Assembly: GCF_029227855.1 (NCBI RefSeq)
Contig: NZ_CP074356.1
Strand: one strand, 5' to 3'
Length of the DNA stretch: 64,000 nucleotides
Source: Escherichia coli
GTDB taxonomy: Bacteria > Pseudomonadota > Gammaproteobacteria > Enterobacterales > Enterobacteriaceae
Positions 23,916-43,494 of the stretch are shown here, piece by piece. Position 1 is the stretch's first letter; each line of letters starts with the position of its first letter. The notes under the pieces were generated by a model, which was not told where the DNA came from, searched no databases, and saw nothing but the letters and a program-made list of their open reading frames with translations. A program made the position numbers and the translations under genes.

Positions 23916-24174
23916 TTGCATACCTCAATGGCCCAATTTACACTGGGTCATTACTCATAATACCTGCTAATGCTTTACATCTCCTTCGCGTTTGTATATT
24001 TTCTTTATCACTTGCAGAAATGCGATGCTACGCCTTGCTCCGTAACTCACCCCATTGATTAACTTATTGAAATAGTTGATTATGGTGAGCAAAAGCGTTC
24101 CGTTCCAATTAGACATAAGATTATTGTAATTTTTTTAAATATTATTTTTCCATGAATAAAATTGGAGTAAGTGC

Positions 24175-25128: not shown

Positions 25129-25336
25129 AAAAGTATTGTTACAGCCAGATCACAGCGAAGAACGAAAAAATGGCACAATCCAACAACAATTTTACATTTT
25201 CGCGACCGCTTTGGCTGCTTTCAGGTCCGTTTCAATGATATACTGCCAGTCGTTAATTCAAAAATAGTTGATAATTACAACAATCTATTGAATTGAAACG
25301 CTTTCCTTCGTAATTCGCAACTGGAACACGCACGCT

Positions 25337-26302
25337 ATGAGTAAACCCATTGTGATGGAACGCGGTGTTAAATACCGCGATGCCGATAAGATGGCCCTTA
25401 TCCCGGTTAAAAACGTGGCAACAGAGCGCGAAGCCCTGCTGCGCAAGCCGGAATGGATGAAAATCAAGCTTCCAGCGGACTCTACACGTATCCAGGGCAT
25501 CAAAGCGGCAATGCGCAAAAATGGCCTGCATTCTGTCTGCGAGGAAGCCTCCTGCCCTAACCTGGCGGAATGCTTCAACCACGGCACAGCAACGTTTATG
25601 ATCCTCGGCGCTATTTGTACCCGCCGTTGTCCGTTCTGTGACGTTGCCCACGGTCGCCCGGTAGCTCCGGATGCCAATGAACCAGTGAAACTGGCGCAGA
25701 CCATTGCCGATATGGCGCTGCGTTATGTGGTTATCACCTCCGTTGACCGTGATGACCTGCGCGATGGCGGTGCCCAGCACTTTGCGGATTGCATTACTGC
25801 CATTCGGGAAAAAAGCCCGCAAATCAAAATTGAAACTCTGGTGCCGGATTTCCGCGGTCGTATGGATCGTGCTCTGGATATTCTAACCGCCACACCACCA
25901 GATGTGTTCAACCATAACCTGGAAAACGTACCGCGTATTTACCGTCAGGTACGGCCTGGTGCAGATTACAACTGGTCGCTGAAGCTGCTGGAACGCTTTA
26001 AAGAAGCGCATCCGGAAATCCCGACCAAGTCTGGTCTGATGGTGGGTCTGGGTGAAACCAATGAAGAAATTATTGAGGTAATGCGCGACCTGCGCCGTCA
26101 TGGTGTGACGATGTTAACGCTGGGGCAATATTTGCAGCCAAGCCGCCATCACCTGCCGGTTCAACGTTACGTTAGCCCGGATGAGTTCGACGAAATGAAA
26201 GCCGAAGCGCTGGCGATGGGCTTTACCCATGCTGCATGCGGTCCGTTTGTCCGCTCGTCTTACCACGCCGATTTGCAGGCGAAAGGGATGGAAGTTAAGT
26301 AA
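25337..26302 (+). CDS. lipA: lipoyl synthase LipA
   Basis: 321 aa. Radical-SAM [10 protein letters not shown] motif plus auxiliary cluster [12 protein letters not shown]. Confidence 0.96.
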
Positions 26303-26332
26303 TCCTGTAATAATTACTTACATCTGTCTGAT

Positions 26333-26364
26333 AAAAAACCCGCTTTTTGAAGCGGGTTTTTTTG
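26333..26364. terminator. bidirectional intrinsic terminator between convergent lipA and tatE
   Basis: AAAAAACCCGCTTtttgAAGCGGGTTTTTTT: a hairpin flanked by an A-run and a T-run, so it reads as a terminator on both strands. Confidence 0.85.
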
Positions 26365-26403
26365 TATCGAACAAGATATTGAGGGAGCGTCCTGCTCGCC
26401 ACG

Positions 26404-26607
26404 TCACTCTTTATGAGAGAGCTTTTCAGCCTGAAGATCAACGTCTGCGCCTTTTTTCGCCGCAGCATCGTCATCATTCATCGCCTTCTTGAACCCTTTA
26501 ATGGCCGCTCCAAGGTCTCCGCCCAGCGTACGTAACTTCTTAGTCCCAAACAGCAGAACGACCAGCGCCGCAACTACCAGCAGTTTGGTAATACTAATCT
26601 CACCCAT
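26404..26607 (-). CDS. tatE: Sec-independent translocase component TatE
   Basis: 67 aa. N-terminal TM helix plus amphipathic helix ([26 protein letters not shown]). TatA paralog. Confidence 0.93.
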
Positions 26608-26735
26608 AGATACCTTCTTGACATATAACCGGCAACAGAACGCGCCTTAAAAACCAGAGAATATTAACGGTCATTCGACGCGCGCACACAATAGCAATCT
26701 GTAACAAGGTGAATCAAGCGCCGAGTAAAAAAACA

Positions 26736-27524
26736 TCATAATAATTGCGGCGGCGCAAAGCGACGGTTGTTTAAGACGGGCAGTTGCGCGCGCACCTGAC
26801 GCACACGTTCGGGCGTCACTTCCGCCATAATGAGTGCAGGCATTTCTGACGCTGCCGCAATGGTGACGCCAAAGGGATCTATAATCCGGCTTTGCCCGAT
26901 ATTTTTGTTCCCGCACTCCCCCGCCGCCACCATATAACAGGTGGTATCCAGCGCACGAGCGGCAAGCAACGTTGACCAGTGATGCTCTTTGAGCGGCCCA
27001 CGAACCCAGGCGGCAGGAAGTACCAGGATTTCAGCTCCCTGTAATGCCTGTGCCAGCGCCAGCTCTGGAAAGCGTAAGTCATAACAGGTCATCAGACCGA
27101 CCTTCATCCCTTCCACCTCCAGTAACGGAGCTATTTCATTACCAGCATCAACATGGCGTGATTCCTGAATGGCAAATGCATCATAGAGATGCAGTTTGGC
27201 ATAACGGGCGACGATGTTTCCTGCCTGTAGCGCCACCAGCATATTCCATGCGCGCCCCGGCGTTGAAGGAACATGAATCGTCAGAATTGTCGTCATCATG
27301 TTACGTTTACTTTCTCGCCGTAAACGTCCGAGGAATTCGCCTTCCAGCAGCTGTGCTGATTTAACCGATAGATCTGCATCATGATCATCACGCGCCAACA
27401 ATGCTTCCGGCAGGACAAACAGCGAAACGTCGTTTTCCGCCGCCTGCGCCATCAACGAGGCACAAATCTCAGCGTTCTTTTCCCACACAGATGTAACAGC
27501 AAACTGTCCTGCAGCAACCAGCAT
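26736..27524 (-). CDS. ybeM: nitrilase-superfamily C-N hydrolase YbeM (intact)
   Basis: Uninterrupted ORF. ATG 27524 is preceded by AGGAGG (27535-27530) with a 5-nt spacer, giving 262 aa; the track start at 27530 is a GTG overlapping the SD. Glu-Lys-Cys triad contexts VLPE, AKLHLYD and [10 protein letters not shown] are present. Confidence 0.85.
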
Positions 27525-27616
27525 TGCCACCTCCTGTCAGAGTCGTAAAATTCGCCAACGACGATTATTCGGCGTTACACTTATCACTCATACAAATCAA
27601 ATAGCAGGATTTTGCA

Positions 27617-28000
27617 GTGTTACAACTTCTTTTAGCAGTTTTTATTGGCGGTGGTACGGGAAGCGTGGCGAGATGGCTGTTAAGTATGCGATTTAACCCG
27701 CTGCATCAGGCGATTCCGTTGGGGACGCTGGCTGCAAACCTGATTGGGGCATTCATCATAGGAATGGGATTCGCCTGGTTTAGCAGGATGACGAACATTG
27801 ATCCAGTGTGGAAAGTATTAATCACCACCGGATTTTGTGGCGGTCTAACAACCTTCTCAACATTTTCGGCAGAAGTAGTGTTTTTGTTACAAGAGGGCCG
27901 CTTAGGCTGGGCGTTACTGAACGTTTTCGTCAACCTTTTGGGGTCTTTTGCCATGACCGCACTGGCTTTCTGGCTGTTTTCCGCCTCAACCGCACACTAA
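27617..28000 (+). CDS. crcB: fluoride channel CrcB/FluC
   Basis: 127-aa four-TM ORF with a GTG start. Recognised as CrcB. Confidence 0.92.
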
Positions 28001-28005
28001 AGACC

Positions 28006-28036
28006 AAAAAAAACCCGCTGATTAAGCGGGTTTTGA
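28006..28036. terminator. bidirectional intrinsic terminator between convergent crcB and cspE
   Basis: AAAAAAAACCCGCTgattaAGCGGGTTTT: an A-run, a 7-bp stem and a T-run. Confidence 0.85.
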
Positions 28037-28053
28037 ATTCTTGCTGACGTATC

Positions 28054-28263
28054 TTACAGAGCGATTACGTTTGCAGCAGAAGGGCCTTTGGCACCGTTAG
28101 TGATTTCGAACTCTACGCGCTGACCTTCAGCAAGAGTTTTAAAACCATTAGTCTGGATTGCAGAGAAGTGTACAAACACGTCTTTGCTGCCGTCTTCCGG
28201 AGTAATGAAACCGAATCCTTTGGACTCATTAAACCACTTAACGTTACCTTTAATCTTAGACAT
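28054..28263 (-). CDS. cspE: cold-shock-domain protein CspE
   Basis: Track ORF extends to 28347. The true start is ATG 28263 ([23 protein letters not shown]1 motif), giving 69 aa. Confidence 0.95.
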
Positions 28264-28437
28264 CAAAATTACCTTTACATGAAAAATAGACACAAATGCT
28301 GTGTCGGTTACCAGTACACCAATTGTGGTACGCTTTGTCCAGTGCAACTTTACTAAAAAGTGATAAAAGTCGCGTTATTTTTGATGTTAATTATTTTACC
28401 CATTGATTTTAAAGAGTTTACTAAAATTTCATTTGTC

Positions 28438-28998
28438 TCAAAACTGAAAGCGCATCCAGGCAAAGTACACATTGCCATTGTTATAGGTACCCGGAATGTA
28501 GGTCATCTGAAAAGTCACTGGACCATAACCCACAGAGGCCAATGGCAGTAGAACCGGGAGAGGGATGTAATTCCAGTTATCGCGTGCCGTTACGCCAGCG
28601 GTGAATCCCAGTCCTAAATGAAAATTTTCATCCGCCAGCGGTCGCCAGGTACTTTCCCATCCGTATCCGGCAATCGGTTCCCATTTGTTCCACGAGTCCT
28701 TAAATGCCATGGCATACAGGCCATGCCAGTTTCCTTTTTCATCCCAACGCGACTGACCAAAACCGCCACCCCACAGTCGCTCGTTATAGCGATCGGTTTT
28801 TTCTTTGTCGTAAGCGAAACGAGCATGCCAGGTGATGGCAGGAATATATAAATCATAATGTTCAGGCTGTTGCCAGGTTTGTGTAATATTTTCTCCAAAC
28901 GTTGTCATCCACTCATCTGCGTTAGCAAAAACTTTACCAACGCTGATTAACTGAATAAAAACAAAGGAAAAGATAGCGACATATTTACTCACGTTCAT
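28438..28998 (-). CDS. pagP: lipid A palmitoyltransferase PagP
   Basis: Track ORF extends to 29022. I chose ATG 28998 ([25 protein letters not shown] signal peptide), giving 186 aa. Beta-barrel with C-terminal aromatic residues (WMRFQF). Confidence 0.93.
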
Positions 28999-29483
28999 TT
29001 GTGACCATAAAACATTTATCAAAAATCTACTACTAGCATAGCAAAGCTACAATTAACATAACCTTAATAGCCCCAACATAAAGAACAATCTGAATAGCTG
29101 CTCTATTTATTTCCGCTTGTTTAAGTTAAATATTTCCGCGCATCGATTAAAGATGATGTATCGTTTTCTGCGATGGGAATAGTCAAAAAAGAAAAACCAA
29201 GTATTTTTTGATGACAAAATGCAACCAAGGAAAAATTTCTTTATTTTTTAATTGGATACAAAAATCACCTTAACGAAGAATATAATATATATCGTCAACC
29301 CATGCTCATGGCAGATTATTTTCTGAGCACGCAACCGCAGCTAACACCATTGCTATTAACAAATTTGCATCAATCCGCCATCAATTTACACACATTATTA
29401 TGTGGTAATTGCCAAACGCTAAATATGCGTTTTGTTATCTATGTATAAAAACAGCAACTTCAATGTCTTAATGGCAGTTTTTC

Positions 29484-29497
29484 TTGATTTTAATCAG
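29484..29497 (+). promoter_or_regulatory. FNR-type site (class II geometry) upstream of dcuC
   Basis: TTGATtttaATCAg matches TTGAT-N4-ATCAA at 9 of 10 positions. If centred at -41.5, the -10 window falls exactly on CATATT (29520-29525). dcuC is known to be FNR-activated. Confidence 0.55.
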
Positions 29498-29586
29498 CAT
29501 TCACCGCCAATTTATTGGGCATATTTTTTCCTTAAGTTTTAGGAATTTTTTATTATTTACTTTGGGGCCTGGAGACAGGAAAAATT

Positions 29587-30972
29587 ATGCTGACATTCAT
29601 TGAACTCCTTATTGGGGTTGTGGTTATTGTGGGTGTGGCTCGCTACATCATTAAAGGGTATTCCGCCACTGGCGTGTTATTTGTCGGTGGCCTGTTATTG
29701 CTGATTATCAGTGCCATTATGGGGCACAAAGTGTTACCGTCCAGCCAGGCTTCAACAGGCTACAGCGCCACGGATATCGTTGAATACGTTAAAATATTGC
29801 TAATGAGCCGCGGCGGCGACCTCGGCATGATGATTATGATGCTGTGTGGCTTTGCCGCTTACATGACCCATATCGGCGCGAATGATATGGTGGTCAAGCT
29901 GGCGTCAAAACCATTGCAGTATATTAACTCCCCTTACCTGCTGATGATTGCCGCCTATTTTGTCGCCTGTCTGATGTCTCTGGCCGTCTCTTCCGCGACC
30001 GGTCTGGGTGTTTTGCTGATGGCAACCCTGTTTCCGGTGATGGTAAACGTTGGTATCAGCCGTGGTGCAGCTGCTGCTATTTGTGCCTCCCCGGCGGCGA
30101 TTATTCTCGCACCGACTTCAGGGGATGTGGTGCTGGCGGCGCAGGCTTCCGAAATGTCGCTGATTGACTTCGCCTTCAAAACGACGCTGCCTATCTCAAT
30201 TGCTGCAATTATCGGCATGGCGATCGCCCACTTCTTCTGGCAACGTTATCTGGATAAAAAAGAGCACATCTCTCATGAAATGTTAGATGTCAGTGAAATC
30301 ACCACCACTGCTCCTGCGTTTTATGCCATTTTGCCGTTCACGCCGATCATCGGAGTGCTGATTTTTGACGGCAAATGGGGTCCGCAATTACACATCATCA
30401 CTATTCTGGTGATTTGTATGCTGATTGCCTCCATTCTGGAGTTCATCCGCAGCTTTAATACCCAGAAAGTTTTCTCTGGTCTGGAAGTGGCTTATCGCGG
30501 GATGGCAGATGCGTTTGCTAACGTGGTGATGCTGCTGGTTGCCGCTGGGGTATTCGCTCAGGGGCTTAGCACCATCGGCTTTATTCAAAGTCTGATTTCT
30601 ATCGCCACCTCGTTTGGTTCGGCGAGTATCATCCTGATGCTGGTATTAGTGATCCTGACAATGCTGGCGGCAGTCACGACCGGTTCAGGCAATGCGCCGT
30701 TTTATGCGTTTGTTGAGATGATCCCGAAACTGGCGCACTCTTCCGGCATTAACCCGGCGTATTTGACTATCCCAATGCTGCAGGCGTCAAACCTCGGTCG
30801 TACCCTGTCACCCGTTTCTGGCGTAGTCGTTGCGGTTGCCGGGATGGCGAAAATCTCACCATTTGAAGTCGTAAAACGCACCTCGGTGCCGGTGCTTGTT
30901 GGTTTGGTGATTGTTATCGTTGCTACAGAGCTGATGGTGCCAGGAACGGCAGCCGCGGTCACAGGCAAGTAA
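29587..30972 (+). CDS. dcuC: anaerobic C4-dicarboxylate transporter DcuC
   Basis: 461-aa polytopic ORF. Recognised as DcuC. Confidence 0.94.
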   Translation: MLTFIELLIGVVVIVGVARYIIKGYSATGVLFVGGLLLLIISAIMGHKVLPSSQASTGYSATDIVEYVKILLMSRGGDLGMMIMMLCGFAAYMTHIGANDMVVKLASKPLQYINSPYLLMIAAYFVACLMSLAVSSATGLGVLLMATLFPVMVNVGISRGAAAAICASPAAIILAPTSGDVVLAAQASEMSLIDFAFKTTLPISIAAIIGMAIAHFFWQRYLDKKEHISHEMLDVSEITTTAPAFYAILPFTPIIGVLIFDGKWGPQLHIITILVICMLIASILEFIRSFNTQKVFSGLEVAYRGMADAFANVVMLLVAAGVFAQGLSTIGFIQSLISIATSFGSASIILMLVLVILTMLAAVTTGSGNAPFYAFVEMIPKLAHSSGINPAYLTIPMLQASNLGRTLSPVSGVVVAVAGMAKISPFEVVKRTSVPVLVGLVIVIVATELMVPGTAAAVTGK

Positions 30973-30980
30973 ATAGTCAT

Positions 30981-31008
30981 GCCGGAGGCAAGTTTCCTCC
31001 GGCTTTAT
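30981..31008. terminator. hairpin terminator between convergent dcuC and dpiA
   Basis: 8-bp stem GCCGGAGG/CCTCCGGC with loop CAAGTTT, followed by TTTAT. It lies 9 nt after the dcuC stop and 5 nt before the dpiA stop. Confidence 0.65.
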
Positions 31009-31012
31009 CATG

Positions 31013-31693
31013 TCACCCACTGTGGTATATGCGTTGCGGTCTGCCAACTTTGCCGTGAACAATTTCAGCAATAATCAGATGGCGGCTGGCGCAATATTCA
31101 AGATAACGTCTGGCAGTGGTGCGGCTGATAGTCAGTGCCTGCGCCACCGTTTCTGCCGTATGTTGCACACCAGGCTCTTTAAACAGTTTTCGCACTGCGT
31201 TTAGCGTCAAGGGGTCAATGCCGGTCGGCAGTTCGTCTTTGGGTTCACCGCGAGCATAGGCATTAAACATCTCATCAATTTGCTTCTGGCTGGCGCTATC
31301 AATACTTTCCAGCATATGTTTACGCTGGCGGAAACGGGTTAGCGTTTGCCCCAGACGTTCATAGGCAATTGGCTTAATGAGATAATCAAATACACCACAA
31401 CGTACGGCTTCAGACACCGTTTCCATATCACTGGCTGCAGTGGTAAACACCACGTCGCCGGGATAATGCGCCTGCACCAGTTCATGCAGTAAATTAATCC
31501 CTCTACCGTCAGGAAGATAGTTATCGAGCAAGATTAGCCCCGGCTTAAAACGCTCGATCATCATTCGGGCCTGCGCCAGGTTTCCCGCCAGTAATATCTG
31601 ACTGAATCCGGGAATGTGACGAATATATTCCGCATGCATCTCTGCCAGCGGCGTTTCGTCCTCAACGATCAATAGGGTTAATGGAGCTGTCAT
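31013..31693 (-). CDS. dpiA: two-component response regulator DpiA (CitB)
   Basis: 226 aa with a receiver domain (LLIVEDE...D) and a C-terminal HTH. Recognised as DpiA. Confidence 0.94.
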   Translation of the reverse strand: MTAPLTLLIVEDETPLAEMHAEYIRHIPGFSQILLAGNLAQARMMIERFKPGLILLDNYLPDGRGINLLHELVQAHYPGDVVFTTAASDMETVSEAVRCGVFDYLIKPIAYERLGQTLTRFRQRKHMLESIDSASQKQIDEMFNAYARGEPKDELPTGIDPLTLNAVRKLFKEPGVQHTAETVAQALTISRTTARRYLEYCASRHLIIAEIVHGKVGRPQRIYHSG

Positions 31694-33320
31694 TAGGTTT
31701 CACTTTCGGAATATAGATTGAAAATAAGGTACCGCAGGGATCATTATCTTCGAGAGTGATAACACCACCGCAGCGCGTTACGTAGCTGGCAATCAAGTAC
31801 AACCCAATGCCATGTTCACCGGGCTCGTCAGCACGCGTACTGACACCCTGCTCAAATATTTTGTCTCGTAGAGACTCTGGAACGCCGCAGCCCTGATCGG
31901 CGACTTCAATCACCACATCATCGCCTTCATCGCTGAGGAATAATTCAACGATCTTGTTTCCTTCATCGCTACGTAGGCTGGCTTCGAAGGCGTTATCAAG
32001 TAAATTGCCAACAATGGCTGCAAACTCGGTGCTGTCCAGTCCTGGCGGCAGTTGCGAAAGCTGACTTCCGGGGACGATGACCATTTTTAGCCCCAGTTCG
32101 CGGGCGCGCTGCACTTTACCAAAAAGCAGCCCCGCCACCTGGCGATCGGCAAACGCCTCGCGCAGGCTATCAATAAGCTGTTGCTGGGCCTGAGACTCCC
32201 CCTGCACCATCGCCAACACGCGATCATACTCTTTCATCTGCAACAGACCATTGAGCGTCGACATCCAATTGAGATGCTCGTGTCGCAATGTGCGCAGGCT
32301 CTCGACGTATTGTTTAATTTGCGTCAGTTGCGCATTGAGGGTGGATATTTCGTCTTTACTACGAAAGCTGATAATGGCCCCCAGCAAATCATCACCAGAA
32401 CGAATAGCTTCCCGGTTGGCAATAACGCTCAGACCGTTAAAGTTCGCCACCACATCCTGTCGTTTTTCATCAATCTGTTCGGTAAAGAAATCGGCGGGCC
32501 TGACCACTTCAGCAATGGGTTTACCCAACCATTGCCGTCCGGGGGAGCTCAGCCCCAGCATCTTTCTTGCGTTACGATTGATGGCGGTAATGTAACCGTG
32601 CGGATCCACCGCAATGAGCCCTTCATAAACCGAACTAAACAGCGCCTCTTGCTGACGGACCACGCGTGCGATTTGCTTTGGCTCCATGCCCATCATCTGC
32701 CGACGGATATGCGCGGCCAGGAACCACGACAGCAACATCAGAATCCCTAACAGCACGACAAACACGCCAGCCATCGGTAATAAAAACTCAGCCCGCCAGC
32801 TATCGATTTTACTCACCAGGTAGCCAATCGACACCACGCCGATGACTTTTCCATCGTCATCAAAGATTGGCGTTTTGGCACGCATCGCCATGCCAATTGA
32901 CCCTTTCCCGGTGATGAAGTAGCTCTCCCCTTTCTCCAGCGCGCCCGGTTTGGTGAACTGCATAGGATAACCAATTTTCTCCGGATTAGGATGGTAAAGA
33001 CGAATCGAGTGCCGATCGCCAATCACCACATAATCGAAATCAGTATCTCTTTGTAATTTATCAGCGATGGTCGCCAGCCTCTTGTAGTCACGCGTTTTCA
33101 CTGCGCTGATGATACTGTCATTAGAAGCAATAATTTTTGCCTGATTCATTGCCATATCGCGCACATGAAGCGTTAAATAGTCCTCAAAACTGGCCGTAAA
33201 ATATTGCGCCAGGGCTGCAATGACAAATATTGAGAACACCAGAATCAGCAAAAAGATACGCAGCGGAAATGCCAGTCTTTGGAAAAATGCAAACTGTTTA
33301 TTCTCGTTAAGCTGCAACAT
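31662..33320 (-). CDS. dpiB: citrate-sensing histidine kinase DpiB (CitA)
   Basis: Track ORF extends to 33380. I chose ATG 33320 (MLQLNENKQFAFF...) with SD AAGGA, giving 552 aa. Two TM segments flank a periplasmic PAS-type domain, with HATPase motifs. The 3' end overlaps dpiA by 32 nt. Confidence 0.92.
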   Translation of the reverse strand: MLQLNENKQFAFFQRLAFPLRIFLLILVFSIFVIAALAQYFTASFEDYLTLHVRDMAMNQAKIIASNDSIISAVKTRDYKRLATIADKLQRDTDFDYVVIGDRHSIRLYHPNPEKIGYPMQFTKPGALEKGESYFITGKGSIGMAMRAKTPIFDDDGKVIGVVSIGYLVSKIDSWRAEFLLPMAGVFVVLLGILMLLSWFLAAHIRRQMMGMEPKQIARVVRQQEALFSSVYEGLIAVDPHGYITAINRNARKMLGLSSPGRQWLGKPIAEVVRPADFFTEQIDEKRQDVVANFNGLSVIANREAIRSGDDLLGAIISFRSKDEISTLNAQLTQIKQYVESLRTLRHEHLNWMSTLNGLLQMKEYDRVLAMVQGESQAQQQLIDSLREAFADRQVAGLLFGKVQRARELGLKMVIVPGSQLSQLPPGLDSTEFAAIVGNLLDNAFEASLRSDEGNKIVELFLSDEGDDVVIEVADQGCGVPESLRDKIFEQGVSTRADEPGEHGIGLYLIASYVTRCGGVITLEDNDPCGTLFSIYIPKVKPNDSSINPIDR

Positions 33321-33699
33321 TGTTTTCCTTGCGGGTTGTCCCGAGCCTCTTTGACGAATGTAATTAAAATGTTGAATCAAAATACATAGATATTAAATAT
33401 AATCGTGGCAAATTTTATTCATTAAATCAATTAAATCACTTAAACCTGCGGGTCATTTCGTAATTACATTAATTAAAAAACTTAAAACCATTAAATAAAT
33501 AAAAAACCACTAACTCTATGTGAAATAAATCAAAATTTCACGCTGCAATACTCCTTAGGATGTATAGCGAAAGGAGAAAAAGATATACCTCGATCGCCCC
33601 CCTTTCTCCCAAGTGAAAATAAAAGGTTATCAGTTTGCAACATCGAACAACATTTGTTGCAAATCGATAACAACATGCACCTTCAGGATACTATTTATT

Positions 33700-34758
33700 A
33701 TGTTCGGCAATGATATTTTCACCCGTGTAAAACGTTCAGAAAATAAAAAAATGGCGGAAATCGCCCAATTCCTGCATGAAAATGATTTGAGCGTTGACAC
33801 CACAGTCGAAGTATTTATTACCGTAACCCGCGATGAAAAGCTTATCGCGTGCGGTGGAATTGCCGGAAATATTATTAAATGCGTTGCTATCAGTGAATCC
33901 GTTCGCGGTGAAGGACTGGCGCTGACATTAGCCACCGAGCTAATTAACCTCGCCTATGAGCGGCACAGCACGCATCTGTTTATTTATACCAAAACCGAAT
34001 ACGAGGCGCTGTTCCGCCAGTGCGGTTTTTCCACGCTGACCAGTGTACCCGGCGTGATGGTGCTGATGGAAAACAGCGCCACGCGACTGAAACGCTATGC
34101 CGAATCGCTGAAAAAATTTCGTCATCCAGGGAACAAGATTGGCTGCATTGTGATGAACGCCAATCCCTTTACGAATGGTCACCGTTATCTGATTCAACAG
34201 GCTGCAGCACAGTGCGACTGGTTGCATCTGTTTTTAGTTAAAGAAGATTCTTCACGCTTTCCCTATGAAGACCGGCTGGATCTGGTGTTAAAAGGCACCG
34301 CCGATATTCCACGCCTGACTGTGCATCGCGGCTCCGAATACATCATCTCCCGCGCTACGTTCCCTTGCTACTTCATTAAAGAACAGAGCGTCATTAACCA
34401 TTGTTACACCGAAATTGATCTGAAGATTTTCCGTCAGTACCTCGCTCCCGCGCTGGGTGTAACTCACCGCTTTGTCGGTACTGAACCCTTTTGTCGCGTT
34501 ACCGCCCAGTACAACCAGGATATGCGCTACTGGCTGGAAACGCCGACTATCTCCGCACCGCCCATCGAACTGGTTGAAATTGAGCGGCTGCGTTACCAGG
34601 AGATGCCGATATCCGCTTCCCGGGTACGTCAACTGCTGGCGAAAAACGATCTCACGGCTATCGCGCCGCTGGTCCCTGCAGTCACGCTGCATTATTTGCA
34701 GAACCTGCTTGAGCACTCCCGCCAGGACGCGGCAGCTCGTCAAAAGACCCCCGCATGA
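33700..34758 (+). CDS. citC: [citrate (pro-3S)-lyase] ligase CitC
   Basis: Track ORF starts at 33613. I chose ATG 33700 (MFGNDIFTRVKRSENKK...), giving 352 aa. Recognised as CitC. Confidence 0.9.
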   Translation: MFGNDIFTRVKRSENKKMAEIAQFLHENDLSVDTTVEVFITVTRDEKLIACGGIAGNIIKCVAISESVRGEGLALTLATELINLAYERHSTHLFIYTKTEYEALFRQCGFSTLTSVPGVMVLMENSATRLKRYAESLKKFRHPGNKIGCIVMNANPFTNGHRYLIQQAAAQCDWLHLFLVKEDSSRFPYEDRLDLVLKGTADIPRLTVHRGSEYIISRATFPCYFIKEQSVINHCYTEIDLKIFRQYLAPALGVTHRFVGTEPFCRVTAQYNQDMRYWLETPTISAPPIELVEIERLRYQEMPISASRVRQLLAKNDLTAIAPLVPAVTLHYLQNLLEHSRQDAAARQKTPA

Positions 34759-34772
34759 GAAACAGGTGAAAA

Positions 34773-35069
34773 ATGAAAATAAACCAGCCCGCCGTTGCAG
34801 GCACCCTTGAGTCTGGGGATGTGATGATACGCATCGCCCCACTCGATACGCAGGATATCGACCTGCAAATCAACAGCAGCGTTGAGAAACAGTTTGGCGA
34901 TGCAATTCGCACCACCATTCTGGACGTTCTCGCCCGCTACAACGTGCGCGGCGTACAGCTGAATGTCGATGATAAAGGCGCACTGGACTGCATTTTACGT
35001 GCACGACTGGAAGCCCTGCTGGCACGCGCCAGCGGTATCCCGGCTCTGCCATGGGAGGATTGCCAATGA
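34773..35069 (+). CDS. citD: citrate lyase acyl carrier protein (gamma subunit)
   Basis: 98 aa. N-terminal AGTLESGDV carries the prosthetic-group serine. Confidence 0.94.
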
Positions 35070-35974
35070 TTTCCGCTTCGCTGCAACAACGTAAAACTCG
35101 CACCCGCCGCAGCATGTTGTTTGTGCCTGGTGCCAATGCCGCGATGGTCAGCAACTCCTTCATCTACCCGGCTGATGCCCTGATGTTTGACCTCGAAGAC
35201 TCCGTGGCATTGCGTGAAAAAGATACCGCCCGCCGCATGGTTTACCACGCGCTGCAACATCCGCTGTATCGCGATATTGAAACCATTGTGCGTGTAAACG
35301 CGCTGGATTCCGAATGGGGTGTTAACGACCTGGAAGCCGTCGTTCGCGGTGGTGCGGACGTTGTGCGTCTGCCGAAAACCGATACCGCTCAGGATGTTCT
35401 GGATATCGAAAAAGAGATCCTGCGTATCGAAAAAGCCTGTGGTCGTGAACCCGGCAGCACCGGCCTGCTGGCGGCGATTGAATCTCCGCTGGGGATTACC
35501 CGCGCAGTGGAAATCGCTCACGCTTCCGAGCGTTTGATCGGTATCGCCCTCGGTGCAGAAGACTATGTGCGCAACCTGCGTACAGAACGCTCCCCGGAAG
35601 GAACTGAACTGCTGTTCGCACGCTGTTCCATTTTGCAGGCCGCGCGCTCTGCGGGTATTCAGGCGTTCGATACCGTCTATTCCGACGCTAACAACGAAGC
35701 CGGATTCCTGCAAGAAGCCGCCCACATCAAACAGCTGGGCTTTGACGGCAAATCGCTGATCAACCCGCGTCAGATTGATCTGCTGCATAACCTCTACGCA
35801 CCGACCCAGAAAGAAGTGGATCACGCCCGCCGCGTCGTAGAAGCCGCTGAAGCCGCCGCTCGCGAAGGCCTCGGCGTGGTTTCCCTGAATGGCAAGATGG
35901 TGGACGGTCCGGTTATCGATCGCGCCCGTCTGGTGCTCTCCCGCGCAGAACTTTCCGGCATCCGCGAAGAATAA
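35066..35974 (+). CDS. citE: citrate lyase beta subunit (citryl-ACP lyase)
   Basis: ATG 35066 overlaps the citD stop (ATGA), giving 302 aa. The track start at 35051 lies inside citD. Confidence 0.93.
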
Positions 35975-35984
35975 GGCAATCAAA

Positions 35985-37517
35985 ATGACGCAGAAAATTG
36001 AACAATCTCAACGACAAGAACGGGTAGCGGCCTGGAATCGTCGCGCTGAATGCGATCTTGCCGCTTTCCAGAACTCGCCAAAGCAAACCTACCAGGCTGA
36101 AAAAGCGCGCGATCGCAAACTGTGCGCCAACCTGGAAGAAGCGATTCGTCGCTCGGGTTTACAGGACGGTATGACGGTTTCCTTCCATCACGCTTTCCGT
36201 GGCGGTGACCTGACCGTCAATATGGTGATGGACGTCATCGCGAAGATGGGCTTTAAAAACCTGACTCTGGCCTCCAGCTCCCTGAGTGATTGCCATGCGC
36301 CGCTGGTAGAACACATTCGCCAGGGCGTGGTTACCCGCATTTATACCTCTGGCCTGCGCGGTCCACTGGCGGAAGAAATCTCCCGTGGTCTGCTGGCGGA
36401 ACCGGTGCAAATCCACTCTCACGGCGGACGTGTGCATCTGGTACAGAGCGGCGAACTGAATATTGATGTGGCTTTCCTCGGCGTCCCGTCCTGTGATGAA
36501 TTCGGTAATGCCAACGGCTACACCGGTAAAGCCTGCTGCGGCTCCCTCGGCTATGCAATGGTTGATGCCGACAACGCGAAACAGGTTGTGATGCTCACTG
36601 AAGAACTGCTGCCTTATCCGCATAATCCGGCAAGCATTGAGCAAGATCAGGTTGATCTGATCGTCAAAGTTGATCGCGTTGGCGATGCCGCGAAAATCGG
36701 CGCTGGCGCGACCCGTATGACCACTAACCCGCGCGAACTGCTTATTGCCCGTAGCGCTGCGGATGTGATTGTCAACTCAGGCTACTTTAAAGAAGGTTTC
36801 TCCATGCAGACCGGCACCGGCGGCGCATCGCTGGCGGTAACCCGTTTCCTGGAAGACAAAATGCGTAGCCGCGATATTCGCGCCGACTTCGCCCTTGGCG
36901 GTATTACCGCAACGATGGTTGATCTGCACGAAAAAGGGCTGATCCGCAAACTGCTGGATGTACAGAGCTTTGACAGCCACGCTGCACAATCGCTGGCCCG
37001 TAACCCCAATCACATCGAAATCAGCGCCAACCAGTACGCTAACTGGGGTTCAAAAGGCGCATCGGTTGATCGTCTCGACGTGGTGGTACTGAGCGCGCTG
37101 GAAATTGACACCCAGTTCAACGTTAACGTGCTGACCGGCTCTGACGGCGTACTGCGTGGTGCTTCCGGTGGTCACTGCGATACCGCGATTGCCTCTGCGC
37201 TTTCCATCATCGTCGCGCCGCTGGTACGCGGTCGTATTCCGACTCTGGTGGATAACGTGCTGACCTGCATCACCCCGGGCTCCAGTGTCGATATTCTGGT
37301 CACTGACCACGGTATCGCAGTTAACCCGGCACGTCCGGAGCTGGCAGAACGTCTGCAGGAAGCGGGCATTAAAGTGGTTTCCATTGAGTGGCTGCGTGAA
37401 CGTGCGCGTCTGCTGACCGGTGAACCACAGCCGATTGAATTCACCGACCGCGTCGTTGCCGTTGTGCGTTACCGCGATGGCTCGGTGATCGATGTTGTGC
37501 ATCAGGTGAAGGAATAA
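35985..37517 (+). CDS. citF: citrate lyase alpha subunit (citrate CoA-transferase)
   Basis: Track ORF starts at 35889 inside citE. I chose ATG 35985 (MTQKIEQSQRQERV...), giving 510 aa. Confidence 0.93.
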   Translation: MTQKIEQSQRQERVAAWNRRAECDLAAFQNSPKQTYQAEKARDRKLCANLEEAIRRSGLQDGMTVSFHHAFRGGDLTVNMVMDVIAKMGFKNLTLASSSLSDCHAPLVEHIRQGVVTRIYTSGLRGPLAEEISRGLLAEPVQIHSHGGRVHLVQSGELNIDVAFLGVPSCDEFGNANGYTGKACCGSLGYAMVDADNAKQVVMLTEELLPYPHNPASIEQDQVDLIVKVDRVGDAAKIGAGATRMTTNPRELLIARSAADVIVNSGYFKEGFSMQTGTGGASLAVTRFLEDKMRSRDIRADFALGGITATMVDLHEKGLIRKLLDVQSFDSHAAQSLARNPNHIEISANQYANWGSKGASVDRLDVVVLSALEIDTQFNVNVLTGSDGVLRGASGGHCDTAIASALSIIVAPLVRGRIPTLVDNVLTCITPGSSVDILVTDHGIAVNPARPELAERLQEAGIKVVSIEWLRERARLLTGEPQPIEFTDRVVAVVRYRDGSVIDVVHQVKE

Positions 37518-38974: not shown

Positions 38975-40438
38975 ATGTCTTTAGCAAAAGATAATATATG
39001 GAAATTATTGGCGCCCCTGGTGGTGATGGGTGTCATGTTTCTTATCCCTGTACCTGACGGTATGCCGCCGCAGGCGTGGCATTACTTTGCAGTGTTTGTG
39101 GCAATGATTGTCGGCATGATCCTCGAGCCAATTCCGGCAACGGCGATCAGTTTTATTGCGGTTACTATTTGCGTTATTGGCAGTAATTACCTGCTCTTTG
39201 ATGCCAAAGAATTAGCTGACCCAGCGTTTAATGCGCAAAAACAGGCGCTGAAATGGGGTCTGGCTGGTTTTTCCAGCACCACGGTATGGCTGGTATTTGG
39301 CGCATTTATTTTTGCATTAGGGTATGAAGTTTCCGGGTTAGGCCGTCGTATTGCCCTTTTCCTGGTGAAATTCATGGGCAAACGCACGCTGACGTTGGGT
39401 TATGCGATTGTCATTATCGACATTCTGCTGGCACCGTTTACACCGTCCAACACCGCGCGTACCGGGGGTACGGTTTTTCCGGTCATTAAAAACCTGCCGC
39501 CGCTGTTTAAATCATTCCCGAACGATCCGTCCGCGCGTCGTATTGGCGGCTATTTGATGTGGATGATGGTCATTAGTACCAGTCTGAGTTCGTCCATGTT
39601 TGTCACCGGTGCGGCACCAAACGTACTGGGTCTGGAGTTCGTCAGCAAAATTGCCGGTATCCAGATTAGCTGGTTGCAGTGGTTCCTCTGCTTCCTGCCG
39701 GTTGGGGTTATCTTGCTTATCATTGCGCCGTGGCTTTCCTACGTGCTGTACAAACCGGAAATCACACACAGTGAAGAAGTGGCAACCTGGGCGGGTGATG
39801 AACTAAAAACCATGGGTGCGCTGACACGCAGAGAGTGGACGCTGATTGGTCTTGTATTGCTCAGCTTAGGTTTGTGGGTATTTGGCAGTGAAGTCATTAA
39901 TGCTACTGCGGTAGGTCTGCTGGCAGTTTCGCTAATGTTGGCCCTGCACGTTGTGCCGTGGAAAGACATTACCCGCTATAACAGCGCATGGAACACACTG
40001 GTCAACCTGGCAACTCTGGTTGTGATGGCTAATGGCCTGACTCGTTCTGGTTTTATTGACTGGTTCGCCGGTACCATGAGTACGCACCTGGAAGGCTTCT
40101 CACCAAACGCAACGGTGATTGTACTGGTTCTGGTGTTCTACTTTGCGCACTACCTGTTTGCCAGCCTGTCTGCGCACACCGCAACCATGCTGCCGGTTAT
40201 TCTGGCCGTCGGTAAAGGTATTCCGGGCGTACCAATGGAACAACTGTGTATCCTGCTGGTGCTGTCTATCGGTATCATGGGCTGTCTGACGCCGTATGCA
40301 ACCGGTCCTGGGGTGATTATTTACGGCTGTGGCTATGTGAAATCAAAAGATTACTGGCGACTTGGTGCAATCTTCGGGGTGATTTACATCTCTATGCTGC
40401 TGTTGGTTGGCTGGCCGATTCTCGCCATGTGGAACTAA
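38975..40438 (+). CDS. citT: citrate/succinate antiporter CitT (DASS family)
   Basis: 487-aa polytopic ORF. Recognised as CitT. Confidence 0.94.
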   Translation: MSLAKDNIWKLLAPLVVMGVMFLIPVPDGMPPQAWHYFAVFVAMIVGMILEPIPATAISFIAVTICVIGSNYLLFDAKELADPAFNAQKQALKWGLAGFSSTTVWLVFGAFIFALGYEVSGLGRRIALFLVKFMGKRTLTLGYAIVIIDILLAPFTPSNTARTGGTVFPVIKNLPPLFKSFPNDPSARRIGGYLMWMMVISTSLSSSMFVTGAAPNVLGLEFVSKIAGIQISWLQWFLCFLPVGVILLIIAPWLSYVLYKPEITHSEEVATWAGDELKTMGALTRREWTLIGLVLLSLGLWVFGSEVINATAVGLLAVSLMLALHVVPWKDITRYNSAWNTLVNLATLVVMANGLTRSGFIDWFAGTMSTHLEGFSPNATVIVLVLVFYFAHYLFASLSAHTATMLPVILAVGKGIPGVPMEQLCILLVLSIGIMGCLTPYATGPGVIIYGCGYVKSKDYWRLGAIFGVIYISMLLLVGWPILAMWN

Positions 40439-40551: not shown

Positions 40552-41358
40552 ATGAAAGCATTCTGGCGTAACGCCGCGTTGCTCGCGGTTTCTCTGCTTC
40601 CCTTCTCTTCTGCCAACGCCGTGGCGTTGCAGGCAAAACAGTATGGCGATTTTGATCGCTATGTCCTGGCCCTCTCCTGGCAAACCGGATTTTGCCAGAG
40701 TCAACACGATCGAAATCGTAACGAACGAGATGAATGTCGCCTGCAAACCGAAACGACCAACAAAGCTGATTTTCTGACCGTACATGGTCTATGGCCAGGA
40801 TTGCCTAAATCGGTTGCTGCCCGTGGTGTTGATGAACGCCGCTGGATGCGCTTCGGTTGCGCTACTCGCCCAATCCCGAATCTACCAGAAGCGCGCGCCA
40901 GCCGAATGTGTTCATCGCCGGAAACCGGGTTATCGCTGGAAACGGCCGCTAAACTAAGTGAAGTCATGCCAGGAGCTGGCGGACGTTCCTGCCTGGAACG
41001 CTACGAATATGCCAAACACGGTGCCTGCTTTGGTTTTGATCCAGACGCATACTTCGGCACGATGGTACGCCTGAATCAAGAAGTTAAAGAGAGCGAAGCC
41101 GGAAAATTCCTTGCGGATAACTACGGTAACACAGTGAGCCGCCGTGACTTTGATGCCGCCTTTGCCAAAAGCTGGGGAAAAGAGAACGTGAAAGCAGTTA
41201 AGCTAACGTGCCAGGGTAACCCTGCGTATTTGACTGAAATTCAGATCTCGATCAAAGCTGACGCCATCAACGCTCCGCTTTCTGCCAACTCATTCTTGCC
41301 ACAACCACACCCAGGCAACTGTGGCAAAACCTTTGTGATTGATAAAGCAGGTTATTAA
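40552..41358 (+). CDS. rna: periplasmic RNase I (T2 family)
   Basis: Track ORF starts at 40534. I chose ATG 40552 (MKAFWRNAALLAVSLLPFSSANA signal peptide), giving 268 aa. T2 RNase CAS motifs TVHGLWP and YEYAKHGAC. Confidence 0.94.
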   Translation: MKAFWRNAALLAVSLLPFSSANAVALQAKQYGDFDRYVLALSWQTGFCQSQHDRNRNERDECRLQTETTNKADFLTVHGLWPGLPKSVAARGVDERRWMRFGCATRPIPNLPEARASRMCSSPETGLSLETAAKLSEVMPGAGGRSCLERYEYAKHGACFGFDPDAYFGTMVRLNQEVKESEAGKFLADNYGNTVSRRDFDAAFAKSWGKENVKAVKLTCQGNPAYLTEIQISIKADAINAPLSANSFLPQPHPGNCGKTFVIDKAGY

Positions 41359-41504
41359 TCCTCTGATTTACAAAACACGCTAATTCGTCTTCCATAAACC
41401 ATGACGATTAAGATTTATACATAATGCGCTACATTGAGGAATTCCCTGAATGTGACGCAAATCACTTCAAAGAGTGAGCAACAGTCAGTATCATCATGTG
41501 AGTT

Positions 41505-41537
41505 AAACCCTCGCCGCCTGACGGTGAGGGTTTTCTT
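41505..41537 (+). terminator. intrinsic terminator, probably the native rna terminator
   Basis: AAACCCTCGCCG-cctga-CGGTGAGGGTTT stem (one G-U pair) followed by TTTTCTT. It lies immediately left of the inferred IS200 left end. Confidence 0.6.
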
Positions 41538-41547
41538 GTGCACAGAA

Positions 41548-41570
41548 AACCCCCAGCTAGGCTGGGGGTT
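41548..41570 (+). terminator. IS200 left-end perfect palindrome (transcription barrier / TnpA-recognised hairpin)
   Basis: AACCCCCAGC-TAG-GCTGGGGGTT is a 10-bp perfect stem with a 3-nt loop, preceded by AAAA. Confidence 0.65.
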
Positions 41571-41599
41571 CCGGAAAGCTTTCAGCTTTGAGCCTGTTA

Positions 41600-41689
41600 T
41601 TAAAACCCCTTTTGATTTGTTAAAACACCTTGCGGTCTGGCAACTGCAAGTGTCAAACAAGAAATCAAAAGGGGGTCCCAATGGGGAAC
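41600..41689 (-). ncRNA. predicted art200-like antisense sRNA to the tnpA 5' UTR
   Basis: The minus strand has a promoter-like TTTACA (41725-41720), an 18-nt spacer, then TAAGCT (41701-41696), putting the start near 41689 (tnpA codon 3). The reverse complement of the UTR stem-loop is followed by UUUU (41605-41602), which reads as a terminator. This gives about 90 nt, matching the published art200 (recalled). Confidence 0.45.
41606..41675 (+). promoter_or_regulatory. tnpA 5'-UTR stem-loop sequestering the Shine-Dalgarno sequence
   Basis: CCCCTTTTGATTTGTT (41606-41621) pairs with AACAAgaAATCAAAAGGGGG (41656-41675). The 3' arm contains the AAGGGGG SD located 6 nt before the tnpA ATG. Confidence 0.65.
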
Positions 41690-42139
41690 GAAAAGAGCTT
41701 AGCGCACACCCGATGGAACTGTAAATATCACATAGTTTTTGCGCCAAAATACCGAAGACAGGTGTTCTACAGAGAGAAGCGTAGAGCAATAGGCAGTATT
41801 TTGAGAAAGCTGTGTGAGTGGAAAAGCGTACGGATTCTGGAAGCTGAATGCTGTGCAGATCATATCCATATGCTTGTGGAGATCCCGCCTAAAATGAGCG
41901 TATCCGGGTTTATGGGATATCTGAAAGGGAAAAGCAGTCTGATGCTTTACGAGCAGTTTGGTGATTTGAAATTCAAATACAGGAACAGGGAGTTCTGGTG
42001 CAGAGGGTACTACGTCGATACAGTGGGTAAGAACACGGCGAAGATACAGGATTACACAAAGCACCAGCTTGAAGAGGATAAAATGGGAGAGCAGTTATCG
42101 ATTCCCTATCCGGGCAGCCCGTTTACGGGCCGTAAGTAA
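41681..42139 (+). CDS. tnpA: IS200 transposase TnpA (Y1 HUH single-strand transposase)
   Basis: Track ORF starts at 41630. I chose ATG 41681 (MGNEKSLAHTRWNCKYHIVFAPKYRR...), giving 152 aa. HUH motif HIHMLV and a C-terminal catalytic Tyr region RGYYVDTVG. Confidence 0.93.
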   Translation: MGNEKSLAHTRWNCKYHIVFAPKYRRQVFYREKRRAIGSILRKLCEWKSVRILEAECCADHIHMLVEIPPKMSVSGFMGYLKGKSSLMLYEQFGDLKFKYRNREFWCRGYYVDTVGKNTAKIQDYTKHQLEEDKMGEQLSIPYPGSPFTGRK

Positions 42140-42299
42140 CGAAGTTGGATGCAAATGTCAGATCGTGTGCGCCTGTTAGGGCGCGGCTGGTAAGAGAGCC
42201 TTATAGGCGCATTTGAAAAACCTCCGGCTATGCCGGAGGATATTTATTTTTGGGTATGTTTATCTGCGACACTCGCAGTACCGACGACATGGAGTAAAA

Positions 42300-42710
42300 A
42301 TGTCCAGACCAACTATCATCATTAACGACCTGGATGCCGAACGCATCGATATTCTGCTGGAGCAACCCGCCTATGCTGGTTTGCCAATCGCCGACGCGTT
42401 AAACGCAGAGTTGGATCGCGCCCAAATGTGTTCGCCAGAAGAGATGCCACACGACGTGGTGACAATGAACAGCCGGGTTAAATTCCGCAATCTTAGCGAT
42501 GGCGAAGTGCGTGTGCGCACGCTGGTGTATCCGGCAAAAATGACCGACAGCAATACTCAGCTTTCCGTTATGGCTCCGGTAGGTGCCGCACTGCTGGGGC
42601 TGCGCGTTGGCGATTCCATTCACTGGGAACTTCCGGGCGGCGTTGCAACCCACCTTGAAGTGCTGGAACTCGAATACCAGCCAGAAGCTGCTGGCGACTA
42701 CCTGCTTTAA
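42300..42710 (+). CDS. rnk: regulator of nucleoside diphosphate kinase Rnk (GreA/B C-terminal-like)
   Basis: Track ORF starts at 42213, inside the IS200 right end. I chose ATG 42300 ([16 protein letters not shown]...) with SD GGAG at 42291-42294, giving 136 aa. Confidence 0.92.
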
Positions 42711-42743
42711 TCCCATCTGCACAAGCGATAACTCGCTTTGCCC

Positions 42744-42770
42744 AGAGGATGCACTCGCATCCTCTTTTCG
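42744..42770 (+). terminator. intrinsic terminator after rnk
   Basis: 9-bp stem AGAGGATGC/GCATCCTCT with loop ACTC, followed by TTTTCG. Confidence 0.7.
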
Positions 42771-43065
42771 CTCAAATATCAACCAGATTTATCATTTTGC
42801 TCTTAAGCGCAGCATTCTAATCTGAACTGGTTATTCATCTGCGGAACCTCATATGAGCGAAGCTCTCGGTATCACTGCATTTTATATATTCATAGCCGCG
42901 ATTATTGTTGCTGCAGTGCTATACCTTGAACAACGCTGGTAGCGCCTGGTTTTATTTATTTTCCAGCTCAATAGCAAATTCAGATCAAATCAGCCTCGCA
43001 AATCATAGATTCATAACCAATAATGTGCTGTTATGTATACATGCAAAAACAAGGAGAGAATGCTT

Positions 43066-43494
43066 ATGTACAAGACAATCATCATGCCAGTGGATGTTTT
43101 CGAAATGGAATTGAGCGACAAAGCTGTTCGCCACGCTGAATTCCTCGCCCAGGATGACGGAGTTATTCATCTACTTCACGTACTACCCGGGTCAGCCAGC
43201 CTGAGCCTGCACCGTTTTGCCGCTGATGTGCGTCGTTTTGAAGAGCATCTGCAACATGAAGCAGAAGAACGTCTGCAAACGATGGTCAGCCACTTCACCA
43301 TCGATCCTTCCCGCATTAAGCAACATGTCCGTTTTGGTAGCGTGCGGGATGAAGTCAATGAGTTGGCAGAAGAACTGGGGGCTGATGTTGTAGTTATCGG
43401 TTCGCGCAACCCTTCGATTTCGACCCATCTGTTAGGTTCTAACGCCTCGAGCGTGATCCGCCACGCCAATCTGCCGGTGCTGGTTGTGCGTTAA
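43066..43494 (+). CDS. uspG: universal stress protein UspG
   Basis: Track ORF starts at 43033. I chose ATG 43066 ([16 protein letters not shown]...) with SD AAGGAG at 43051-43056, giving 142 aa. Confidence 0.92.

Follow-up and report, generated by a model that had tools for sequence, protein, structure and literature searches.

An IS200C Copy between rna and rnk

The stretch of Escherichia coli DNA analyzed here (64,000 nucleotides, hereafter the window, with positions counted from its first letter) carries a complete copy of the insertion sequence (IS) IS200C between the genes rna and rnk. All of the genes around it lie on the + strand, in the order citG, citT (38975-40438), rna, tnpA, rnk, yldA and uspG, with tnpA belonging to the inserted element. 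The rna-rnk spacer is 941 bp in the window versus 229 bp in K-12 MG1655. The region 41300-42500 is matched at 100% by the complete chromosome of E. coli JNEC-KY178 (NZ_AP045174.1), a clinical isolate from Japan. The element stands directly behind a hairpin and T-tract that form the terminator of the rnk leader (Table 1). We are confident, overall, that insertion of IS200C (711 bp, 41538-42248) into the T-tract after this hairpin, by homing to a terminator and with a probable drop in rnk expression as its result, explains the locus as a whole.

The initial annotation of this DNA, which was made without database searches, had recognized an IS200 from the long spacer and its 152-amino acid open reading frame (ORF), and both observations hold. 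The ORF matches Pfam Y1_Tnp (PF01797) over residues 11-129 of 152 (E=9.7e-37), it is labeled as IS200C transposase in RefSeq, and its translation shows an HIH motif at residues 61-63 and Tyr125 within the motif YxKHQ. No second ORF with a family match was present in the ORF list for 41538-42248. The element is therefore confirmed as a real and correctly recognized IS200C copy, and one that was already annotated as such. K-12 had also been taken to have no IS at this site; its shorter spacer and the gap in the alignment agree with this.

The internal organization of the element is that of its group, the single-gene IS200 group of the IS200/IS605 family. In the IS200 architecture of Ellis et al. 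2015 (PMC4513863), an element of 707 bp has its terminator at nt 12-34 and a stem-loop at nt 69-138, and tnpA starts near nt 40. The length, palindrome and stem-loop of the window element agree with this description, as did the architecture on which the initial annotation relied. Both of the structures that had been placed in that annotation fold as described: the left-end palindrome has a 10-bp stem and a 3-nt loop (z = -2.7) and occupies nt 11-33 counted from 41538, and the longer stem-loop takes in the GGGGG of the ribosome-binding site. The right end (42221-42248) was terminator-like on both strands in a terminator scan. The Rfam family STnc490, which covers the small-RNA region of IS200, matched with 145 bits over 41548-41671. 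That match is on the + strand, in the sense of tnpA, and runs from the left-end hairpin onward. In the literature, STnc490/art200 is antisense to the 5' untranslated region (UTR) of tnpA, and tnpA starts near nt 40; neither the antisense RNA nor the tnpA transcript is an obvious counterpart of the model in strand and extent.

Table 1. Features of the rna-rnk region of the window, in order of position.
Feature	Position	Strand	Basis
rna (RNase I), upstream gene	40552..41358	+	RefSeq; Pfam Ribonuclease_T2
Rfam RF01771 "Enterobacteria rnk leader", full-length match	41434..41542	+	118.1 bits, E=4e-23
CRP-binding palindrome TGTGACGCAAATCACT	41451..41466	strand-neutral	reverse complement is a published ChIP-seq site
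Promoter-like site TTCAAA-17-TATCAT	41466..41494	+	sigma-70-like scan
Target hairpin, then TTTTCTT; rnk-leader terminator and first terminator-like structure after rna	41505..41537	+	fold, K-12 alignment
IS200C, complete, 711 bp	41538..42248	+	empty-site alignment, four E. coli copies, conserved right ends, tandem copy
Left-end palindrome; transposase-binding hairpin and bidirectional terminator (function from PMC4513863, PMC5435999)	41548..41570	+	fold
5' UTR stem-loop, nt 69-138 from 41538	41606..41675	+	fold -37.2 kcal/mol, z = -5.6; function from PMC4513863
tnpA, 152-amino acid Y1 (HUH) transposase, I126T relative to the common IS200C protein	41681..42139	+	Pfam PF01797; protein comparison
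Right-end hairpin CCTCCGGC-TAT-GCCGGAGG, then ATATTTATT	42221..42248	+	terminator scan, fold, conserved across genera
Native rnk 5' leader left attached to rnk, 51 nt including one extra T	42249..42299	+	K-12 alignment
rnk (GreA/GreB-family regulator), intact	42300..42710	+	RefSeq WP_000089731.1; Pfam GreA_GreB and Rnk_N

Ends of the Element

Pairwise alignment with K-12 is colinear through 41537 (...GAGGGTTTTCTT) and restarts at 42250 (TTGGGTATG...), which leaves 712 extra bases in the window; because of the T's on either side, the junction can be slid by 2 nt in this alignment. We defined the ends from four E. coli copies at different loci, at least 25 right ends from other genera and one tandem copy. 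Of the three E. coli copies from other strains, one separates tig from clpP, one the thrL attenuator from thrA and one yggN from ansB. Identity between them and the window copy spans GTGCACAGAAAACCCCC... to ...GCCGGAGGATATTTATT and none was found beyond, and the termini common to the copies are GTGCACAG... on the left and ...ATATTTATT on the right. The same limit is seen in other genera (Yersinia, Serratia, Phytobacter, Edwardsiella and others), where conservation of the right end stops at ...ATATTTATT in more than 25 copies and the next base is variable. At one further locus (L102) two IS200 copies stand head to tail, the second placed directly after the right end of the first, and the junction reads ...ATATTTATT/GTCTATGG (also given as ...ATATTTATT/GTCTATGGAAAACCCCC). 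The first base of the element thus lies 8 nt ahead of the AAAA found before the left hairpin, and the last five bases are TTATT. Together, the shared ends and the tandem junction set its limits at 41538 and 42248, with one extra T in the T-run. The ends first proposed, 41537 and 42245, were off by 1 and 3 nt, well inside the 20 nt that had been allowed for them.

The termini are not inverted repeats, and the T-runs at both sides blur any check for a target duplication. Measured against K-12, the four E. coli sites have gained 712, 712, 710 and 711 bases, or the element with +1, +1, -1 and 0 T. This variation looks like the element plus or minus one T in the T-run, resembling homopolymer noise, and not like a fixed duplication. 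A fixed 2-bp target duplication was considered and rejected because the excess ranges from -1 to +1 T among the sites.

Terminators as Targets of IS200-Group Elements

One genome per species was scanned with the exact 25-nt left-end hairpin, which found more than 120 places. The hosts included Yersinia, Serratia, Citrobacter, Kluyvera, Phytobacter, Vibrio, Pectobacterium and Edwardsiella, as well as Mailhella, Elusimicrobia and Bacillota metagenome-assembled genomes (MAGs). In nearly all of the 117 distinct left flanks, a GC-rich hairpin is succeeded by a T-run reaching up to the IS. When the last 45 nt of the flanks were folded, the median energy was -18.8 kcal/mol (n=117) versus -6.5 kcal/mol in 1,070 control sites matched for T-runs in the same loci, and a fold of -10 kcal/mol or lower was found in 98% of flanks versus 26% of controls (Mann-Whitney p=4e-61). 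Under a strict perfect-stem rule, a hairpin was present in 74% of flanks and 5.5% of controls; this detector undercounts, its misses being imperfect stems, and it was replaced by the comparison of folding energies.

The flanks also agree in sequence and spacing. T occupies positions -5 to -1 in 115, 108, 80 (with A in another 17), 107 and 101 of the 117 flanks, and the resulting consensus, TT(T/A)TT, fits the last five bases of the element itself, TTATT. The flank hairpin mostly has its last G/C pair 6-8 nt from the insertion point, and the right-end hairpin lies 9 nt from the end of the element. An A-run is found directly 5' of both end hairpins, at the position of the guides in IS608. The three other E. 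coli copies conform to this pattern, as the terminators of tig and yggN and the attenuator of thrL lie just ahead of them. So does the tandem at L102, where the right end of one IS served as the site of the next. Leader attenuators have been hit repeatedly: the rnk leader in the window, thrL-thrA in strain EC190329 and pheL-pheA in Yersinia (PMC3082878).

In EC190329 (locus L004, 1404-2261) the T-run interrupted by the IS200C copy is precisely that of the thr attenuator, with thrL on one side and thrA on the other, an arrangement that should uncouple thrABC from attenuation. We also noted that the exact 25-nt left-end hairpin is unchanged in distant lineages (Enterobacterales, Vibrio, Mailhella, Elusimicrobia, Bacillota MAGs and Vagococcus), which implies either wide horizontal spread or very strong constraint.

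A preference of IS200-group elements for terminators is not new. Terminator-like stem-loops were reportedly proposed as hot spots of IS1541 by Odaert et al. in 1998 (J Bacteriol 180:178). In a full-text search for terminator targeting by IS200 or IS1541, only the pheL-IS1541 case and a preprint of 2025-26 were found; the preprint shows that terminator-like sequences are enriched upstream of ISs, most strongly for IS200/IS605.

The flanks could have another origin. T-rich pentamers abound and selection would act against insertions in genes or promoters, so that the element might use any T-rich pentamer with no preference for structure, and only the harmless insertions behind terminators would persist. 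The guide-like A-run would in fact account for the T-rich motif only. We consider this explanation unlikely. Sites matched for T-runs in the same loci have a comparable hairpin in 5.5-26% of cases versus 74-98% of real insertions, the spacing from stem to IS is narrow (6-8 nt), and leader attenuators, which are not obviously harmless sites, are also hit. Survival bias may have shaped the pattern in part, but in view of the matched controls and the narrow spacing it is unlikely to account for all of it.

Most simply, the transposase would take a terminator for the right end of its own element, and the single-strand mechanism of the family would be used with a T-rich target. By homology with IS608 and ISDra2, we infer transposition by "peel and paste", in which the Y1 transposase carries the element in single-stranded form and would place it immediately 3' of TT(T/A)TT, 6-8 nt after a GC-rich hairpin. 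Such a target would resemble the right end of the element (a hairpin, then ATATTTATT), and this likeness of layout would make intrinsic terminators, leader attenuators included, the usual landing sites. The A-runs 5' of the end hairpins would stand in place of the IS608 "guide" that pairs with the target. For IS200C it is the layout (A-runs, T-rich target and TTATT end) that is compatible with peel-and-paste and guide-target pairing. The tnpA gene would come to point in the same direction as the terminated transcript.

The Insertion Site in the rnk Leader

The target hairpin (41505-41533) has a G/C stem formed by 41508-41516 and 41522-41530 and a predicted energy of -21.5 kcal/mol (z = -4.9). 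It is identical in K-12, where the T-tract reads TTTTCTTTT. The rna stop codon is 147 nt upstream, with no other GC stem-loop and T-tract in between. The built-in terminator scan did not flag 41505-41537; in our view this is an artefact of the scan rule, as A:T pairs lengthen the stem into the T-tract.

The initial annotation took this hairpin to be the terminator of rna. A GC stem-loop with a T-tract is indeed present downstream of rna, and it may well terminate rna transcripts also, but the label misses that the same hairpin is the terminator of the rnk leader described by RF01771 and lies downstream of a CRP site and a promoter-like site. The RF01771 match covers model positions 1-109 with a score well above the gathering score of 50, rnk follows downstream, past the IS, and the IS begins at model position 105 of 109. 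This family originated in a survey of premature terminators, in which an attenuator was proposed upstream of rnk in a region that co-immunoprecipitates with Hfq (Naville and Gautheret 2010, PMC2965389). Attenuation in the rnk leader through alternative terminator and antiterminator structures is a claim from comparative analysis in that study (PMC2965389).

Upstream of the hairpin are the elements from which rnk is likely to be transcribed. The reverse complement of the palindrome TGTGACGCAAATCACT, AGTGATTTGCGTCACA, is a listed CRP site at rnk from chromatin immunoprecipitation sequencing (ChIP-seq) in enterotoxigenic E. coli H10407 (PMC4287617), and rnk is a target of CRP in genomic SELEX (systematic evolution of ligands by exponential enrichment; PMC3105977). 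The promoter-like site at 41466-41494 is the only sigma-70-like site in 41300-42400. It predicts a start of rnk transcription near 41500-41501, just ahead of the target hairpin, and the center of the CRP site would then fall at about -41.5/-42.5, a geometry that, on this reading of the sequence, suggests class II activation by CRP. From the predicted start to the IS is ~38 nt, and 51 nt separate the IS from the rnk ATG. The distance to the rnk start had been estimated at ~54 nt, which is close; alignment with K-12 gives 51 nt of native sequence. With the CRP site and the only promoter-like site both upstream of the hairpin, the insertion falls inside the rnk transcription unit and not in neutral DNA.

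It could be argued instead that the hairpin is only the terminator of rna and that the rnk promoter lies within the 51 nt before the ATG, in which case the IS would sit in neutral DNA and rnk expression would be unchanged. The hairpin is the first terminator-like structure after rna, and no measured rnk start site was found in the literature searched. The sigma-70-like scan, however, found no promoter-like site in 42249-42299, the ChIP-seq site and the only promoter-like hexamers are upstream of the hairpin, and both Rfam and its source paper count the hairpin as part of the rnk 5' leader (PMC2965389). We regard a promoter in the remaining 51 nt as improbable.

The CRP palindrome also bears on the Rfam family itself, because "hairpin 1" of RF01771 coincides with it (41451-41466). 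If transcription starts near 41500, downstream of this operator, the first RF01771 hairpin would fall outside the RNA, and part of the family may describe promoter DNA rather than transcribed RNA. This is a concern for RF01771, as its 5' half overlaps a protein-binding site with experimental support. We also observed a minimal start-stop ORF, ATG TGA (41496-41501), that overlaps the predicted start region of rnk (window 41495-41503) and lies within the strongly conserved AUCAUCAUG of the Rfam consensus.

Expected Effects on rna, rnk and tnpA

The insertion left the target hairpin and 7/9 bases of its T-tract in place, so that little change is expected in where rna transcripts end or in any short leader RNA. 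The situation of rnk is different. The known rnk promoter region is now 0.7 kb from the gene, with two IS hairpins between. That native promoter elements more than ~50 nt upstream of rnk had been displaced by 0.7 kb was proposed in the initial annotation, and the CRP site and the promoter-like site, both upstream of the IS, bear it out. From their positions, the CRP-dependent rnk promoter would now point into tnpA.

Transcripts that pass the leader hairpin would enter the IS and meet the block at its left end, and then the terminator-like right end. In Salmonella, the left-end hairpin of IS200 stops ~85% of incoming transcripts (PMC5435999). The element's own promoter for tnpA is intrinsically weak, and translation of tnpA is blocked by the stem-loop and an antisense RNA (PMC4513863). 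It is plausible, as had been suggested, that the IS hairpins insulate rnk from upstream transcription, and rnk is probably expressed less, by read-through only, and no longer properly controlled by CRP. The prediction for the strain is that rnk is cut off from its CRP-dependent promoter, which would fire into the transposase gene, a consequence of local interest. The rnk product is a non-essential GreA-family factor that binds RNA polymerase.

The IS could also have the opposite effect and drive rnk, with transcription either running on from tnpA or starting at an outward or hybrid promoter in the right end of the element. In favor of this is the IS200C copy between the thrL attenuator and thrA in another strain, since thrA is a biosynthetic gene that presumably still needs expression. 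Against it, the right end consists of a strong hairpin and a T-run, no promoter-like site was found at or beyond the right end, and the tnpA promoter is weak (PMC4513863). We therefore think it quite unlikely that the element activates rnk.

The rnk promoter had been singled out in the initial annotation as the one captured by citT in the long-term evolution experiment. This remark is correct, as the duplication in the Cit+ lineage put citT behind the aerobically active rnk promoter (PMC5918244). That context has no bearing on what the inserted element is.

Comparison with Known Elements

The window element is like IS200 of Salmonella and IS200C of E. coli in having a single tnpA for a 152-amino acid Y1 HUH transposase and a length of ~710 bp, and it shares with them the palindrome at nt 12-34, a stem-loop (nt 69-138) in which the Shine-Dalgarno sequence is hidden, the STnc490/art200 region and the absence of terminal inverted repeats. 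It has in common with IS608 and ISDra2 the subterminal hairpins at both ends, a short A-rich stretch 5' of each at the guide position, and insertion 3' of a short motif. In IS608, guide tetranucleotides pair with the cleavage and target sites, and neither IS608 nor ISDra2 produces a target duplication (PMC5934647). Unlike these elements, which insert at TTAC (IS608) and TTGAT (ISDra2), the group surveyed here inserts at TT(T/A)TT, nearly always after a GC hairpin; the window element also differs from them in lacking tnpB and in an orientation that departs from the preference for the lagging-strand template described for IS608.

IS1541 of Yersinia is closer. It shares the exact left-end 25-mer and the right end, and its copies in Y. 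pestis follow flanks of a hairpin and T-run. It differs in its host and in its first 8 nt, which are GTGCCCAG in IS1541 and GTGCACAG in IS200C. The IS1541 copy that separates pheL from pheA (PMC3082878) parallels the rnk-leader and thrL cases. The window leader differs from RF01771 in being cut at model position 105, with an IS between leader and rnk. A similar choice of target is known from bacterial class C group II introns, which home to sites just after intrinsic terminator hairpins. Their mechanism, with a ribozyme and a reverse transcriptase, is unrelated, and the likeness is in target choice only.

How Terminators May Be Recognized

Several points weigh against the reading of the locus as terminator homing followed by a loss of rnk expression. 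The exact cut inside the T-runs is uncertain by 1-2 nt, as the excess of T, which varies among the four E. coli sites (+1, +1, -1 and 0), indicates, and the association with hairpins could partly reflect the survival of harmless insertions. The start site of rnk and the effect on the gene are both predictions. The presence of IS200C between the thrL attenuator and thrA suggests that downstream expression can still be sufficient, and the block may be leaky. Lastly, the cumulative GC skew of the window + strand (1-64000) is negative, and in K-12 the locus is on the clockwise replichore with rnk on the minus strand. Taken together, the skew and the map position place the active strand of the IS on the leading-strand template, opposite to the preference of IS608. 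This conflict of orientation rests on one copy. If it is the terminator and not the replication fork that sets orientation, transcription rather than replication might supply the single-stranded target.

A target exposed in an RNA polymerase that has paused at the U-tract would explain why tnpA points with the terminated transcript. We tentatively hypothesize, giving it slightly less than an even chance, that IS200-group transposases recognize terminators either by structure, as mimics of their right end, or via polymerase paused at the U-tract, that these elements are terminator-homing and uncouple genes from their promoters or attenuators, and that RF01771 partly models promoter DNA. Small IS200 copies are not randomly scattered in intergenic DNA and appear to home to terminator hairpins, including those of regulatory leaders. 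An IS200 near the start of a gene is therefore a reason to look for a disrupted attenuator or a displaced promoter.

Occurrence of the Insertion and Variation of the Copy

The occupied site was found in 1/5,426 complete E. coli genomes. The reconstructed IS-free site (1,089 nt) is present without gaps at 99.9% identity in the closest genomes, such as that of strain 118UI, and it is covered at 80% or more in 5,421/5,426 genomes. The initial annotation had asked whether IS-free genomes of E. coli might already contain the 0.7-kb segment; these counts show that they do not. The site is unique among complete E. coli genomes, yet it is typical of IS200C.

The window copy has 98-99.6% identity to IS200C copies annotated in RefSeq and 3-5 differences in 709 positions from the three copies of other strains. 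No structural feature separates it from other IS200C copies; what distinguishes it is a site absent from the other 5,425 genomes and three substitutions that are private relative to the compared copies from other strains. One of these is I126T (codon 126, window 42056-42058), which adjoins Tyr125, the presumed catalytic tyrosine. The exact I126T TnpA was seen on only one other contig, a 757-nt metagenome contig, where it is at a different site, again with a hairpin and T-run. Because the same protein is present at a second, different site, the I126T variant has probably transposed. About 24 places in the genome match the query, so that many IS200C copies are present, and no second copy lies within the 64-kb window. 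The insertion is most improbably an assembly artefact in which one of ~24 copies of this multicopy repeat was misplaced, even with its occurrence in a single genome, given that both junctions are clean, with a canonical hairpin-plus-T target and conserved ends, that the copy has its three private substitutions, and that the source record is a complete chromosome.

Other Features of the Window

Downstream of rnk (42711-43066), uspG directly follows yldA and ybdR is absent at this position. In K-12, ybdR (1.2 kb) lies between uspG and yldA/rnk. Further upstream in the window, G+C content is 0.47-0.48 from ~24000 to 36000, across tatE, crcB, cspE, pagP, dcuC and dpiAB, versus ~0.52 on either side.

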